This document shows positions 31,186 to 38,972 of a stretch of DNA of 64,000 bases, piece after piece. Under the pieces are notes generated by a model. The model did not search any database and had not been told where the DNA came from. It saw only the letters and a list, made by a program, of their open reading frames with translations. The stretch's first letter is position 1. Each line of letters starts with the position of its first letter. The position numbers and the translations under genes were made by a program. The DNA comes from Escherichia coli (GTDB lineage: Bacteria > Pseudomonadota > Gammaproteobacteria > Enterobacterales > Enterobacteriaceae), in assembly GCF_003334785.1 (NCBI RefSeq), contig NZ_QOWV01000001.1. One strand, written 5' to 3'.

Positions 31186-33609
31186 TTAAAATCTGAATGT
31201 CATATCGAATTCAACGTATAAGTTGTGTTCTCTGTCACCGTCATAAGGTCGTTTTTCCCAGCGTAGCGTTGCGCCAGCATCAATCACGTCATTCCAACTA
31301 ATGCGTTGCCCGTAGCCGAGTTGGGTGACGACATCCGTGCCATAATGTTTTTGCCAGGAGGCACCAACACCTGCGCTGAATATTTGCTCCCAGCTATTTT
31401 CATAGCTTCGCCATAACAAATGGCTTGCCTCAAATGCCGGAACAATATCGAACGTTTTTATAGGGTTGTAGTATGGGGTATCGTGTTCTGTATTTTGTTC
31501 GTAATACAGACTGGGTAGGAAATCGACAATCAAATATGGTGAAGACCAGATGCGTTCCTGACCCTCAAGTGAGACTTCATGACGCTGGTTACTGTCGGAA
31601 AAATCAGTGAAAGCCCAGGAGACACCGTACTTACGCCGCTCATTTTGATACCAGCGAACATAAGCCTGAGCACTGTTGCCTGTAACACCATTTTTCATTG
31701 CCCGTAATGGAACGCGGTGAGAGAGGCGTTCCAGTTGCGAACCAATACGCCAGTTATCATTAAAATCATACCAGCCAGACAGGCGCGCGCCGGGTTTATG
31801 CTCATGATTGAAAACGCGTTCAGCGTACTCTGCCTCGAGCCAGATATTACGTGACCGCCACTCAACACCCGCAAGCCAGTCGCGAACAATCCCTTTTCCT
31901 TCGCTAAATTGTCCATCGGCATAACCGAATCCAGCAAAACCGCGCCAGTTATCCTTCAGCGGTGGTGAATAAACGATGGTGGTTAAGTCGACATCATGTT
32001 TACCACTATCCGGGCCTTCGGCATCAATTCCTGTTGAGCCAGCGATACGAAGCTCTGCAAGATTATGTACATCAACCGCACGTTTTAATCGTACAACGCC
32101 GGGATCTTGCGGTTCACGTTCGACAACATCGTGCGTTAAGACAGCTGCCTGCTGCCATTCTTGTAACGTTAATGCTGTCCAGGCTTGTTCAACCTCCAGA
32201 TTAATATTACGTGGCTCGATCACTTCTGCTTTTTTTAATTCATTTTCTGCTGCACGAGGCCAACCGCGGGCTTGTAACACACTCGCGTAATCAATGCGCA
32301 GTCCCTGATTTCCTGGTGCGTTATAAGCAAGCTCTCTGGCTGTCATTTCAGCCTGAGGAAGATCATTACTATATTTTGCTACGGTTGAGAGAAACGAATG
32401 CCCCTGTAACCAGGTATCATTCGGGATGCTCGTAGGCGTGCCCATTAACCGAAGGAAAGGCGGCGAAGTATTAATGGTATGTTGGGTGACAGTTAGCGCG
32501 CCCGGATAATTTTCACTCTCCAGGTGGCTGTAAAAGAGATCCGCAAGTTCTTCATCGGATAAATCCGGGGCAATGGTCTCCTTGTGATAAAAGAGCTCGG
32601 TCATTATTGACTGTGCTTTTTTCGGCTGATGATCTTTGAGATAAGCCGATGCAACCCAATATTGCCCCCAGGGCGGAATAATTTGCCCCGTCTTTTTTAA
32701 TCGCTGATAGTGAGAAATAACGTCTTTATAACGATCGCGAGTTAATAACGCGCCAAGATGATCAACCTGAATACGCTGGTACTGGGCAGTGCGGTCTGGG
32801 TTATCGTGCCACAGAATTTCTAATGCAGCGTATTGGGCGAGGGCGCGATCGGCAATGGCATAACGTTCACTTTCACTGCGCGTAGGCATAAACGACAGTC
32901 TGACCAGTTCGGCATGAATATCAGCGCGAATATCTGGCGTTAAATTGGCATCGTCAATCGCGGCAGCAAGTTGATTATTACGTAATGCCTGCACGTATTC
33001 TGTGGGATATTGTTGCGTAGATGCATTTTCAGGTAATGACTCTGTCATCGCCCGTAATTCATCCTGATGACGCCCCGCCAGTTTATAGATATAGGCTTCT
33101 GCGAGTAAATTGGCTTTGTCCGGTGCTCCAGAGTTAAGCTGCTTAAGTTTAACCAGCGCAGTATCATAGTGACCAGCATCTGCCAGGGTTAAAATTTGTC
33201 CCCGTTGATAATCCTTATTTTGCGGCTCCAGAGAGAGCGCCTTTTGCCACAGTGTAAGCGAGTTTTGCCATTGTTGCAGGTTACGATAAGCGACGGCGAC
33301 AGCTGCATAACCACGCGCTGGTAATTGCTGATGACGGTAGCGGTTGTAAACGGTAATAACCTGTTTATCTTGCCCGGCCCATAAGGCAATCTGTAACCAG
33401 TCAGCAATTTGGTTATTGCTGAGTGCTGATTTTAGTGCAAACCATGACAAAGCTGGCTGAGTATTACCCTTGCGAGCTTCAATAATCAATGCATCATAGG
33501 CGTTATTAACAGCACTCTTCGCCGCGGGACTCGCTGCTAAAAATGCGGCAGTAAGAAGTTTCAAAGCCCATTTGGTTTTCGGGCACCTTTTTCTGCTACT
33601 TGAATACAT
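31186..33609 (-). CDS. pgaA: PGA outer-membrane export porin PgaA (TPR plus beta-barrel)
   Basis: 807 aa. Confidence 0.93.
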   Translation of the reverse strand: MYSSSRKRCPKTKWALKLLTAAFLAASPAAKSAVNNAYDALIIEARKGNTQPALSWFALKSALSNNQIADWLQIALWAGQDKQVITVYNRYRHQQLPARGYAAVAVAYRNLQQWQNSLTLWQKALSLEPQNKDYQRGQILTLADAGHYDTALVKLKQLNSGAPDKANLLAEAYIYKLAGRHQDELRAMTESLPENASTQQYPTEYVQALRNNQLAAAIDDANLTPDIRADIHAELVRLSFMPTRSESERYAIADRALAQYAALEILWHDNPDRTAQYQRIQVDHLGALLTRDRYKDVISHYQRLKKTGQIIPPWGQYWVASAYLKDHQPKKAQSIMTELFYHKETIAPDLSDEELADLFYSHLESENYPGALTVTQHTINTSPPFLRLMGTPTSIPNDTWLQGHSFLSTVAKYSNDLPQAEMTARELAYNAPGNQGLRIDYASVLQARGWPRAAENELKKAEVIEPRNINLEVEQAWTALTLQEWQQAAVLTHDVVEREPQDPGVVRLKRAVDVHNLAELRIAGSTGIDAEGPDSGKHDVDLTTIVYSPPLKDNWRGFAGFGYADGQFSEGKGIVRDWLAGVEWRSRNIWLEAEYAERVFNHEHKPGARLSGWYDFNDNWRIGSQLERLSHRVPLRAMKNGVTGNSAQAYVRWYQNERRKYGVSWAFTDFSDSNQRHEVSLEGQERIWSSPYLIVDFLPSLYYEQNTEHDTPYYNPIKTFDIVPAFEASHLLWRSYENSWEQIFSAGVGASWQKHYGTDVVTQLGYGQRISWNDVIDAGATLRWEKRPYDGDREHNLYVEFDMTFRF

Positions 33610-34195: not shown

Positions 34196-35554
34196 ATGGA
34201 AAAAGACTATTTGAGAATGAGTAGTACTGTATTAGTGAGCTTATTGTTTGGGCTTGCTTTGGTTTTGGTGAATAGTTGGTTTAATCAGCCAGGCGTTGAG
34301 GAAGTTGTTCCACGATCAACCTATCTGATGGTAATGATTGCTTTATTTTTTATCGATACTGTTGCATTTATTTTTATGCAGTTGTATTTCATTTATGACC
34401 GTAGGCAATTTTCAAACTGTGTACTTAGTTTGGCTTTTCTGAGTTGTTTGATTTACTTTGTTATAACCGTCATTATCATTCAGCAAATTATTGAGGAGCG
34501 TTTGACAAGCAGTGTTGTCCAAAATGACATTGCAATCTATTATTTGTTTCGTCAGATGAGTTTGTGCATATTAATATTTCTGGCATTGGTGAATAAAGTT
34601 AGTGAAAACACAAAACAGCGCAATTTATTTTCCAAAAAAATGACTTTGTGCATAAGTTTGTTTTTTGTTTTTGGGGGGCCGATAGTTGCTCACATACTTT
34701 CTAGTCATTATGAGAGCTACAATTTACACATTGCCGAGTTAACCAATGAAAATGGTCAGGTGGTTTGGAAAGCCTCATATGTTACCATAATGATTTTCAT
34801 GTGGTTAACCTTGCTTTCGGTTAATCTATACTTTAATGGTTTACGCTATGATATCTGGAATGGAGTGACGGTGATTGCTTTTTGTGCCGTACTGTACAAT
34901 ATCTCTCTGTTATTTATGAGCAGGTATAGCGTGTCCACTTGGTATATTAGTCGCACTATTGAAGTAGTCAGTAAGTTAACCGTTATGGTAATATTTATGT
35001 GCCATATATTCAGTGCGCTACGAGTAACAAAGAACATTGCACATCGCGATCCCTTAACCAATATATTTAACAGAAATTATTTTTTTAATGAACTGACAGT
35101 TCAATCAGCATCAGCCCAAAAAACGCCTTATTGCGTCATGATTATGGATATCGACCACTTCAAAAAAGTCAACGACACCTGGGGGCATCCGGTTGGCGAT
35201 CAGGTGATAAAAACAGTGGTGAATATCATTGGGAAAAGCATACGACCAGATGACCTTTTAGCGCGCGTCGGCGGCGAAGAGTTTGGCGTCTTGCTGACGG
35301 ACATCGATACTGAACGTGCGAAAGCTTTAGCGGAAAGGATTCGGGAAAATGTTGAGCGTTTAACTGGCGATAATCCTGAATACGCTATACCACAAAAAGT
35401 GACGATTAGTATTGGCGCTGTTGTGACTCAGGAAAATGCGTTAAACCCAAATGAGATCTATCGACTGGCTGATAACGCACTTTACGAGGCGAAAGAGACC
35501 GGGCGTAATAAGGTGGTTGTGAGGGATGTGGTGAATTTTTGTGAGTCACCATAA
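34196..35554 (+). CDS. dgcT: Diguanylate cyclase DgcT (YcdT), membrane-anchored GGDEF
   Basis: 452 aa from MEKDYLRMSS; GGEEF motif. Confidence 0.92.
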   Translation: MEKDYLRMSSTVLVSLLFGLALVLVNSWFNQPGVEEVVPRSTYLMVMIALFFIDTVAFIFMQLYFIYDRRQFSNCVLSLAFLSCLIYFVITVIIIQQIIEERLTSSVVQNDIAIYYLFRQMSLCILIFLALVNKVSENTKQRNLFSKKMTLCISLFFVFGGPIVAHILSSHYESYNLHIAELTNENGQVVWKASYVTIMIFMWLTLLSVNLYFNGLRYDIWNGVTVIAFCAVLYNISLLFMSRYSVSTWYISRTIEVVSKLTVMVIFMCHIFSALRVTKNIAHRDPLTNIFNRNYFFNELTVQSASAQKTPYCVMIMDIDHFKKVNDTWGHPVGDQVIKTVVNIIGKSIRPDDLLARVGGEEFGVLLTDIDTERAKALAERIRENVERLTGDNPEYAIPQKVTISIGAVVTQENALNPNEIYRLADNALYEAKETGRNKVVVRDVVNFCESP

Positions 35555-35594
35555 AGCGGCATTTTGATCCTACCCACGTAATATGGACACAGGC

Positions 35595-36461
35595 CTAAGC
35601 GAGGTTCTTGTTTTCAAATTGTTCCGGACTGAGGCCGCCACACCAACTGTGCCGCCGCCACCGATTGTAATCACATTCGATATAATTAAACACCGTTGCC
35701 CGCATTATTTCCCGGCTGATAAAGTGTTCTCCATGGATACATTCCACTTTCAGCGAATGAAAGAAGCTTTCCACGCAGGCATTATCGTAGCAGCAACCTT
35801 TTGCGCTCATACTTCCACGCAGATTATGCCGCTTCAGTTGCGCCTGATAATCTGCTGAACAGTACTGGCCTCCACGGTCCGTGTGAACGATAACGTTCCG
35901 GGGCCTCTTACGCCGCCACAGCGCCATCTGCAGGGCATCGCAGGCCAGTTGCGCCGTCATGCGTGGCGACATTGACCAGCCAATAACGGCACGTGACCAC
36001 AGGTCAATGACCACTGCCAGATACAGCCAGCCTTCATCTGTACGTAAGTACGTGATGTCTCCTGCCCACTTCTGGTTCGGGCCACTGGCGTAAAAATCCT
36101 GCTCCAACAGATTTTCTGACACAGGCAGGCCGTGTGCGCGGTAGCTGACCGGGCTGAACTTCCGGGAGGCCTTTGCCCTCAGTCCCTGACGGCGCAGGCT
36201 TGCCGCCACGGTTTTTACGTTAAAGGGGTAACCCTGAGCACGCAGTTCATCCGTCAGGCGTGGGGCACCGTAACGCTGTTTTGACCGGGTAAAAGCCGCG
36301 AGGACAACGCTGTCGCAGTGTTGGCGGAACTGCTGACGCGTGCTTATCCTTGTCCGCCGCTGACACCACGTATACCAGCCGCTGCGGGCCACCCGGAGCA
36401 CGCGGCACATTGCTTTGATGCTGAACTCAGCCTGATGTTTTTCAATAAAGACATACTTCAT
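35595..36461 (-). CDS. insF: IS3 transposase OrfB (InsF)
   Basis: 288 aa, DDE integrase-like. Confidence 0.93.
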
Positions 36462-36757
36462 TTCAGGCGCTTCGCGAAGTATGTCGCGGCCTTTTGGAGG
36501 ATAGCCAGCTCTTCATCCCGTTCTGCCAGCTGGCGTTTGAGACGTGCAATCTCGGTAGACATCTCCAGTTCACGTTCAGAAGACGTCTGCTGATTTTGCT
36601 GTTTACTGCGCCAGTTGTAGAGTTGTGATTCATACAGGCTGAGTTCACGGGCTGCGGCAGTAACACCGATGCGTTCAGCAAGCTTCAGGGCTTCACTGCG
36701 AAATTCAGGCGAATGCTGTTTACGGGGTTTTTTACTGGTTGATACTGTTTTTGTCAT
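36458..36757 (-). CDS. insE: IS3 transposase OrfA (InsE)
   Basis: 99 aa from [18 protein letters not shown]; overlaps insF in -1 frame arrangement. Confidence 0.92.
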
Positions 36758-36822
36758 GTGAGTCACCTCTGACTGAGAGTTTACTCACTTAGCCGCGTGT
36801 CCACTATTGCTGGGTAAGATCA

Positions 36823-37166
36823 GTGCCTGGCACACGCGTTTGATGGAAGACGGCGTTCAGGCAATGCGCGATTATCTTGCCGGACTGGATATCGCTTCGC
36901 CAGAGCATCAGGTTCTGATGAACGTAACAGCAAAAAGCGAGGTCGCTCCGTCAATTATCAAAGAAAATCTCTCATTACACTTAACTCATACGGTGAAATG
37001 GACTGAATCTCTCGATACATTTCTGAATATGCCAACCCCGGTAGCTTTCCTTGAAATAAGTAATAAGCCCTATTTGGGGAATATGTTAAATGATTTTGCT
37101 GGCGTGGATCAGCAACGAGTTATGCATTGTCGTAAAGCATTTAGTGATGCAAAGGTATTCAAATGA
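36823..37166 (+). pseudogene. ymdE: ymdE, C-terminal fragment of a FabD-like malonyl-CoA:ACP transacylase, truncated by IS3
   Basis: ORF-track frame starts inside the IS3 terminal repeat; no plausible own start. Confidence 0.75.
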
Positions 37167-38149
37167 TTCCTGATTATTTAACTTTTATTCGCTTTCAGGA
37201 TAAACGAAATCTGATATACATTTATGCTATTGGACTTATTCTGATAGGCTTTTATTGGAAGAATGCAGGGTTTACTTTTCCATCAGAGGATATTGGTGTA
37301 GTTAGTGGGATTCTGGCTCTGGTGCTGTATAATTTTATTTTTGATCTCAAGGCGTACTGGGCTTATAAATGCGTCACGAAGAATATCGATTTTTCGTGGT
37401 TTAAGAAAAAGCAGAACCACAAAATAGAATTATTTCTTACACAACCTCTGGTGGCAGGATTTCTGTCGTTAATCATGTTGAGTGCAATGAGTTGGGGGCT
37501 ATACCAGCTTCTACCCTCGTTATATGCGCTGTTCCTGATTTCGTTACTTGGGCCGTTGGTCATCTTTCTGCTGTTTCGGATGATCCGCACCAGTTATGTC
37601 AAGCAGGTCGCTATTTCAGTAGCGAAAAAAGTAAAATATAAAAGTCTGACTCGCTATGTGCTGCTTTCGGTGTGCATCTCAACGGTTGTTAACCTGCTTA
37701 CTATCAGCCCGTTGCGTAACAGTGATTCTTTTGTGACAGAGGGGCAGTGGTTAACGTTTAAATCGATAATTGCATTGCTCATTCTTTGTGGCGTAGTGTT
37801 GGCGATTAATCTGTTTTTTCTGCGCTTCTCCAAGCGGTACGCTTTTCTGGGCAGGCTTTTTTTGCAGGAAATCGATCTGTTTTTCTCCAGTGAAAATGCG
37901 TTGTCGACCTTTTTTGCCAAGCCGCTTTGGCTTCGGTTATTCATATTGCTGGTTATTGAAGTGATGTGGATTACGCTGGTGTCGGTATTGGCAACGCTTG
38001 TAGAATGGCGGATTTGGTTTGAAGCCTATTTTTTACTCTGCTATGTACCGTGCTTAATTTACTATTTTTTCTATTGTCGATTCCTCTGGCATAACGATTT
38101 TATGATGGCATGTGACATGTATTTCCGTTGGGGGCATTTTAATAAGTGA
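37163..38149 (+). CDS. ycdU: Uncharacterised polytopic inner-membrane protein YcdU
   Basis: 328-aa AT-rich ORF with multiple hydrophobic segments. Confidence 0.85.
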
Positions 38150-38280: not shown

Positions 38281-38903
38281 CCCGGTGTGTGCAATATACG
38301 AAAAAAAAGCCCGTACTTTCGTACGAGCTCTTCTTTAAATATGGCGGTGAGGGGGGGATTGACTCGCTTCGCTCGCCCTGCGGGCAGCCCGCTCACTGCG
38401 TTCACGGTCTGTCCAACTGGCTGTCGCCAGTTGTCGAACCCCGGTCGGGGCTTCTCATCCCCCCGGTGTGTGCAATATACGAAAAAAAAGCCCGTACTTT
38501 CGTACGAGCTCTTCTTTAAATATGGCGGTGAGGGGGGGATTGACTCGCTTCGCTCGCCCTGCGGGCAGCCCGCTCACTGCGTTCACGGTCTGTCCAACTG
38601 GCTGTCGCCAGTTGTCGAACCCCGGTCGGGGCTTCTCATCCCCCCGGTGTGTGCAATATACGAAAAAAAAGCCCGTACTTTCGTACGAGCTCTTCTTTAA
38701 ATATGGCGGTGAGGGGGGGATTGACTCGCTTCGCTCGCCCTGCGGGCAGCCCGCTCACTGCGTTCACGGTCTGTCCAACTGGCTGTCGCCAGTTGTCGAA
38801 CCCCGGTCGGGGCTTCTCATCCCCCCGGTGTGTGCAATATACGAAAAAAAAGCCCGTACTTTCGTACGAGCTCTTCTTTAAATATGGCGGTGAGGGGGGG
38901 ATT
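38281..38903. repeat. tRNA-linked tandem repeat array: four 181-bp direct repeats, each carrying the serX terminator and the last 19 nt of tRNA-Ser
   Basis: Unit starts at about 38284, 38465, 38646, 38827 (period 181); shared tggcggtgagggggggatt core; near-identical copies. Confidence 0.9.
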
Positions 38904-38972
38904 CGAACCCCCGATACGTTGCCGTATACACACTTTCCAGGCGTGCTCCTTCAGCCACTCGGACACCTCACC
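38885..38972 (-). tRNA. serX: tRNA-Ser (88 nt, long variable arm)
   Basis: Acceptor 5' GGTGAGGTG / 3' CACCGCCA, T-arm GGTTCGAATCC; followed on minus strand by hairpin plus T-run. Confidence 0.9.

Follow-up and report, generated by a model that had tools for sequence, protein, structure and literature searches.

IS3 beside truncated ymdE in Escherichia coli stands in the place of an O-island 47-type segment

Genes and the IS3 element between dgcT and serX

We analysed a 64,000-nucleotide stretch of the E. coli contig NZ_QOWV01000001.1 (hereafter, the window). The gene order around one IS3 copy in the window is pgaA-dgcT-IS3-ymdE-ycdU-serX-ghrA, and the 4.3 kb around this IS3 are 100% identical to many K-12-like genomes. 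The locus is the same as that of IS3D (insEF-4) and the pseudogene ymdE in K-12 MG1655 (dgcT(ycdT)-IS3-ymdE-ycdU-serX-ghrA), where IS3D occupies 1,094,245-1,095,502 and the pseudogene comes next (PMC5635171). In the literature, ymdE is called 'foreshortened by an IS3 element', and homologues of 945 bp occur outside phylogroup A (PMC4951805). The features of the window are listed in Table 1, in which positions of the corresponding intact locus refer to the O157-like strain CV261 (L003).

Table 1 Features around the IS3 copy in the window
Feature	Position	Strand	Remarks
dgcT (ycdT)	34196..35554	plus	diguanylate cyclase gene; from the ORF list; RefSeq gives a 1359-nt dgcT in identical loci
Left flank 'ttt'	35562..35564		left deletion breakpoint 35564/35565 = L003 1785
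Complete IS3	35565..36822	minus (transposase strand)	1258 bp, without target-site duplication
IRR (right inverted repeat, downstream of orfB)	35565..35603		adjoins the dgcT side; fixed junction
IS3 orfB	35595..36461	minus	DDE/rve catalytic domain; Pfam rve (1.3e-27), rve_2, HTH_21
IS3 orfA	36458..36766	minus	HTH_Tnp_1 (Pfam 7.8e-10), DNA-binding part; annotated ATG at 36757
IRL (left inverted repeat, upstream of orfA)	36784..36822		adjoins ymdE'; neighbours differ between lineages
Right flank 'gtg'	36823..36825		bases next to IRL
ymdE'	36823..37166	plus	344 nt; what remains of the 3' part of a gene for a FabD-like ACP S-malonyltransferase (residues about 201-313 of 313)
ycdU	37163..38149	plus	closes the long operon of the island; its ATG and the ymdE stop overlap (ATGA)
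3.4 tandem 181-bp RtT-type repeats	38281..38903	minus	downstream of serX
serX, tRNA-Ser (GGA)	38885..38972	minus	right-hand landmark of the variable interval

The preliminary description of this DNA had placed the IS3 ends at 35565 and 36822, and these ends were confirmed. The tips are of the 5'-TG...CA-3' type (TGATCC... at 35565 and ...AAGATCA at 36822), and the terminal inverted repeats, 39 nt each, are 72% complementary. Both the length and the inverted repeats are those of the IS3 group. orfA and orfB overlap at 36458-36461, as in the two-frame organization of the IS3 family, in which a programmed -1 frameshift links the frames, and RefSeq labels identical loci as 'IS3-like element IS3 family transposase, programmed frameshift'. 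The boundaries are not arbitrary, because the span 35565-36822 is exactly the one matched by unrelated copies of IS3 from plasmids and other chromosomes.

Simple insertion of IS3 creates a 3-bp direct duplication of the target. At the window copy, the 3 bp at the two ends differ (ttt vs gtg), as had also been described, and there is no duplication. Alternative boundaries and a longer duplication were considered as well; no shift of either end gives a repeat. As a control, we inspected four unrelated copies of IS3 whose ends are the same, and three of the four have perfect 3-bp duplications (atc, ctg and ctt). Therefore, the missing duplication at the window copy is meaningful. It is a property of the insertion event and not of the element: it marks a secondary rearrangement and leaves the membership in IS3 unaffected. 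The fourth control copy, on plasmid pTHO-015-3 (L013), is without a clean 3-bp duplication (…gatatc/IS3/catatc…). Judged by this copy, IS3 elements that lack a duplication are evidently not rare.

dgcT is intact; 10 nt separate its stop codon from the left breakpoint, and in the RefSeq annotation of identical loci the gene ends 11 nt ahead of IS3. The right breakpoint falls 598 nt into the 942-nt ymdE, so that ymdE' consists of the last 113 codons of a 313-aa gene. Upstream, the TTG at 36807 is the only start, and it lies within the terminal repeat of IS3. The ORF that begins there (36807-37166) is 96% identical to residues 196-313 of the 313-aa ACP S-malonyltransferase-like protein, and non-IS DNA supplies it only from residue about 201 (the sixth codon) on. 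The earlier view of ymdE as a C-terminal fragment without a start of its own thus holds, and no ymdE start was found outside the IS.

The full-length YmdE encoded by intact islands shows the Acyl_transf_1 fold of Pfam (1.8e-24); among NCBIfam families, fabD matches it best (TIGR00128; 1.8e-52). With 178.7 bits, it does not reach the equivalog cut-off of fabD (260.9). The window fragment, with a score of 38.3 against the same cut-off, keeps only profile positions 196-264 of 290. Full-length ymdE is a FabD paralogue in a secondary-metabolite-like operon and does not encode the housekeeping enzyme. The full-length protein contains ...GSCGHSVGEY... near residue 95 (the GHSxG nucleophile elbow). 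Because the region of the GHSxG serine is absent from ymdE', the remnant can have no transacylase activity.

ycdU is an orphaned last gene, severed from the upstream genes and the promoter of its operon. We considered whether a new promoter out of IS3 drives ymdE' and ycdU. A simple promoter scan of 35300-37400 gave no plus-strand promoter-like site, and its total count did not surpass that in shuffles; this candidate was rejected.

The RtT-type repeats in the window are perfectly identical, and the 3' end of tRNA-Ser is copied at the start of each. Matches to Rfam RtT (RF00391) lie on the minus strand at 38342-38478, 38523-38659 and 38704-38840. Elsewhere, the repeat core is present twice in LB19b, once each in STEC306 and E110019, and is absent from AVS0747 and CV261; EC0880B has no annotated RtT.

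The island missing from the window

The preliminary description had recommended a comparison with genomes lacking IS3 at this site. By this comparison, the ancestral-type dgcT-serX interval could be reconstructed and the lost genes named. The loci of CV261 (L003) and of the porcine strain ETEC6335 (L015) both contain an intact island. Flank alignment places window position 35564 at L003 1785 and window position 36823 at L003 33527. IS3 takes the place of 31,741 bp (CV261) or 31,737 bp (ETEC6335) between the flanks; as in adjacent deletions, the flanks are not contiguous in the unrearranged genome. The islands share 97.8% identity, and both are free of IS3.

An IS3-associated deletion or rearrangement had been suggested to have removed the 5' part of ymdE and possibly additional island genes. 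The first part of this suggestion is borne out by the loss of the first 598 nt of ymdE and by the distance of 31.7 kb between the flanks in intact genomes. The second part was an understatement: about 26 further island genes are gone. These include pdeT/vmpA (encoding an EAL-domain protein), grvA (a ToxR-like winged-helix regulator), an SDR oxidoreductase gene, a chaperone-usher fimbrial operon and a filamentous-haemagglutinin/ShlB two-partner secretion pair. The island also carries a long fatty-acid/polyketide-like operon. This operon contains acpS, SDR, FabZ-like, ACP and aminomethyltransferase-like genes, two ketosynthase genes, and ABC transporter, LolA-like and hypothetical genes, and ends with full-length ymdE and ycdU. 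The window keeps only the last 1.3 kb of the island (ymdE codons about 201-313 and ycdU, at 98.6% identity). It holds a remnant and not an OI-47-type island.

O-island 47 (OI-47) of the O157:H7 strain EDL933 comprises 31,727 bp and 27 ORFs (z1528-z1556), including grvA and vmpA/pdeT (PMC8565820; PMC4287979). Its size resembles that of the gap in the window (31,727 bp vs 31,741 bp), and its gene content matches the CV261 locus. The missing DNA is OI-47 of EDL933. By definition, OI-47 is specific to O157 in comparison with K-12, and it is usually regarded as acquired DNA. In contrast, the K-12 state at this locus is a deletion scar, and an OI-47-type island is intact outside O157 too, for example in ETEC6335.

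Several strains carry a second island, which bears an integrase, after ycdU (from L003 35220, L004 8773 and L010 5529 onward); it stands in place of the plain serX-ghrA arrangement. Thus, the dgcT-ghrA interval holds two independent variable segments.

A deletion with a constant left junction and nested right junctions

We surveyed 5,426 complete E. coli genomes for the junctions of this locus. The left junction between dgcT and IS3 was found in 2,293 genomes (about 42%), and 2,149 genomes have the whole dgcT-IS3-ymdE'-ycdU arrangement. An intact island was detected in 388 genomes at the left junction and in 390 genomes across ymdE; these are mostly O157:H7 and O55:H7, with a few others. In a further arrangement (1,397 genomes), dgcT lies directly beside serX and there is no island. 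The scar is old and widespread and is no peculiarity of K-12.

The last 12 or so codons of dgcT in the no-island genomes differ completely from those in island and scar genomes. The divergence begins at window position 35518 (35518-35554 compared with L002 16453 onward). Therefore, the variable segment has its left boundary within the coding region of dgcT, and the C-terminus of DgcT differs between the two classes of genomes.

The left junction (…gcggcattt/TGATCC) is identical in all loci read. At the other end, the IRL tip of a complete IS3 abuts at least three nested natural endpoints, and each joint is at the terminal A of IS3. The first endpoint, ggcggttaaagg, corresponds to L003 33342; 185 bp more of ymdE are kept, and 715 genomes have this junction. 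The window has the second endpoint, gtgcctgg (L003 33527), which occurs in about 1,400 genomes, a number obtained by difference (2,149 minus 715). At the third endpoint (115 genomes), IS3 is joined to tgactcgc in the RtT repeat by serX, and ymdE and ycdU are both gone. The genomes with this RtT endpoint include E. coli B (BL21(DE3) and REL606) plus wild isolates, and the endpoint falls in one RtT unit of the window, at 38360, 38541 or 38722. Thus, one junction is constant and the other is variable, with the joints at the IS terminus, as in adjacent deletions.

Further deletions involve the same end. In E110019 (L004 6001-6720), IS3 is cut after nt 714 and is joined, within 1 nt of the position of the IRL tip, to ymdE at the 33342-type position. 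This locus derives from the 33342 type via a further deletion from IS3 nt 714 to the IRL tip. The same truncation is probably present in about a dozen genomes (727 half-matches vs 715 full junctions). In addition, a lab-evolved MG1655 clone carries a 26,518-bp 'IS3-mediated' deletion from ymdE to pyrC (PMC8611074). By our own arithmetic, the start of this deletion, 1,094,727, equals 1,095,503 minus the 776-bp deletion of the ancestor, where 1,095,503 is the first base after IS3D according to the coordinates in PMC5635171. In total, at least four or five independent deletions start exactly at the IRL end, and all of them run in the same direction.

The right flank of the window (36823-38149) was compared with those of L004, L005, L007, L008 and L010. 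The 33342 and 33527 types each occur on two right-flank haplotypes. Because all four combinations of type and haplotype are present, the flank SNPs give no order of the junction types. The first SNP that distinguishes the haplotypes is only 164 nt from the joint. The left- and right-flank haplotypes across IS3 also occur in all four combinations and are freely reassorted. Therefore, recombination is the likelier cause of the mixing of junctions and haplotypes, and recurrent deletion at an identical nucleotide is less likely than recombination.

Origin of the scar

The scar probably arose by an IS-mediated adjacent deletion that started from the IRL end of an IS3 copy beside dgcT and removed the OI-47-type island. 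We propose the following course of events from the comparison of the loci. An ancestor of the K-12-like lineages possessed an island of the OI-47 type, about 31.7 kb long, in the interval from dgcT to serX. IS3 would have sat just downstream of dgcT, with its original insertion site on the dgcT side. The IRL end, the putative active end of this copy, would then have been joined to a site in ymdE with loss of the intervening DNA, that is, by intramolecular transposition from one IS end. The same IRL end would later have given the further rightward deletions. In this scheme, the joints would have been made by transposase rather than by homologous recombination. IS3-family elements transpose by a copy-out/paste-in mechanism, as established for IS911 and IS3. 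The route may have been an intramolecular attack by the active end, a circle junction or a tandem dimer.

We favour adjacent deletion because the junction on the dgcT side is fixed, the nested joints lie at the exact IRL tip, the IS is intact and the duplication is missing. Taken together, these features are the classical signature of an adjacent deletion. The 3-bp duplication would be missing because the two flanks of IS3 never were neighbours. Adjacent deletions that lack a duplication have been documented in the IS3 family for IS150 in evolving E. coli B (PMC11708052). The window resembles the adjacent deletions mediated by IS1, IS10 and IS903, and by IS150 in the Lenski lines, in that the IS is complete, no duplication is present, one junction is conserved and flanking DNA is lost on one side (PMC11708052). 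Unlike those cases, the deletion at the dgcT locus is natural, old and fixed in a large part of the species, and its successive endpoints are preserved across lineages. Moreover, the mechanism is deduced from comparative anatomy rather than observed.

Another possible, although less probable, origin is homologous recombination between two IS3 copies. In this case, IS3 would have inserted twice in the same orientation, after dgcT and in ymdE, and each insertion would have duplicated 3 bp; RecA-dependent recombination would then have excised the island and left a hybrid IS3 with ttt and gtg flanks. This yields exactly the observed product. Furthermore, K-12-like genomes hold several IS3 copies (a median of 3-4 places per genome), and the free reassortment of flank haplotypes on both sides of IS3 indicates that recombination is active at the locus. 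However, three natural right endpoints and the lab deletion to pyrC are known, and a separate same-orientation insertion followed by recombination would be needed for each. To our knowledge, no IS3 copy is present near pyrC in MG1655; therefore, the lab deletion was probably not a crossover between pre-existing IS3 copies.

Recombination between two copies also requires an intermediate with both of them, and no such intermediate was found in the 5,426 genomes or in metagenome contigs, the latter scanned without a positive control. With chimeric probes, 0 of the 5,426 genomes had an IS3 at the dgcT site that was followed by the island interior, and the probe for IS3 at the ymdE breakpoint of the window with upstream ymdE kept gave no true intermediate in the same genomes. 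Two genomes were covered by the latter probe, and they contain the E110019-type truncated IS3. An insertion at 33342 with both sides retained was also rejected, since the probe had a single place in every genome. An island between two IS3 copies was present neither among the about 390 intact-island genomes nor in the rest of the 5,426, and a simple IS3 insertion with a ttt duplication in an intact island was not found in these genomes. Two scans of metagenome contigs, both without a positive control, gave no matches to either intermediate junction.

Within the preferred explanation by adjacent deletion, the IRL end may be regarded as a long-lived, one-directional deletion generator that has a site preference and is still active. 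We consider this extension doubtful. It would mean that one and the same shortening of the ymdE remnant, by 185 bp, took place independently at the identical nucleotide on two flank haplotypes, and that the 26.5-kb lab deletion reflects the present-day activity of the IRL end. If it were true, intramolecular IS3 events would involve target selection, and the locus would be a natural model of how copy-out/paste-in elements erode adjacent islands.

The two remaining explanations are far weaker. It is very improbable that K-12 never had the island, that is, that OI-47 entered the O157 lineage by insertion and IS3 merely hit a ymdE that was natively short. pdeT/vmpA has been described as 'inserted' downstream of ycdT in EDL933 (PMC4287979), and genomes with dgcT directly beside serX are numerous (1,397). 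However, the window retains the right end of the island as well as a dgcT 3' end of the island type, distinct from 35518 onward from that of the no-island genomes, and a gene fragment that starts mid-codon at the IS tip is a remnant and not a native gene. For the scar lineages, this explanation is refuted. The chance that a simple IS3 insertion lost its duplication by point mutation, or that its boundaries were misread, is negligible: nothing beyond general possibility speaks for it, and it is refuted by the 31.7 kb between the flanks in intact genomes and by boundaries that equal those of unrelated IS3 copies with duplications.

It was already known that ymdE is a pseudogene cut by IS3 and that OI-47 is missing from K-12, the latter by definition. 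In the searchable literature, we found only partial statements and no explicit one that IS3D marks the OI-47 deletion; the missing duplication, the identity of the gap with OI-47 and the nested endpoints in about 42% of genomes were not found stated there. These parts are routine comparative inferences on a known locus and a known event type, and the locus is a textbook IS scar.

The deletion accounts for the absence of PdeT/VmpA (a c-di-GMP phosphodiesterase) and GrvA from K-12, from E. coli B and from about 40% of the E. coli genomes sequenced. The same explanation applies to the absence of the fimbrial operon and of the lipid or polyketide-like pathway, which are present in O157:H7. In the scar lineages, the island genes were lost next to IS3 and not gained by O157. 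Caution is also needed with ymdE and ycdU, which have been read as a 'mastitis core' gene pair. Because ymdE is a catalytically headless remnant and ycdU is the orphan of a deleted operon, the two should not be taken for an intact functional unit.

The product of ycdU is a multi-pass membrane protein that belongs to no NCBIfam family. In intact islands, translation of ycdU is coupled to that of the FabD-like gene, and the pair closes the ACP/ketosynthase/ABC-transporter operon. This arrangement hints at a role of YcdU in making or exporting the lipid product of the pathway.
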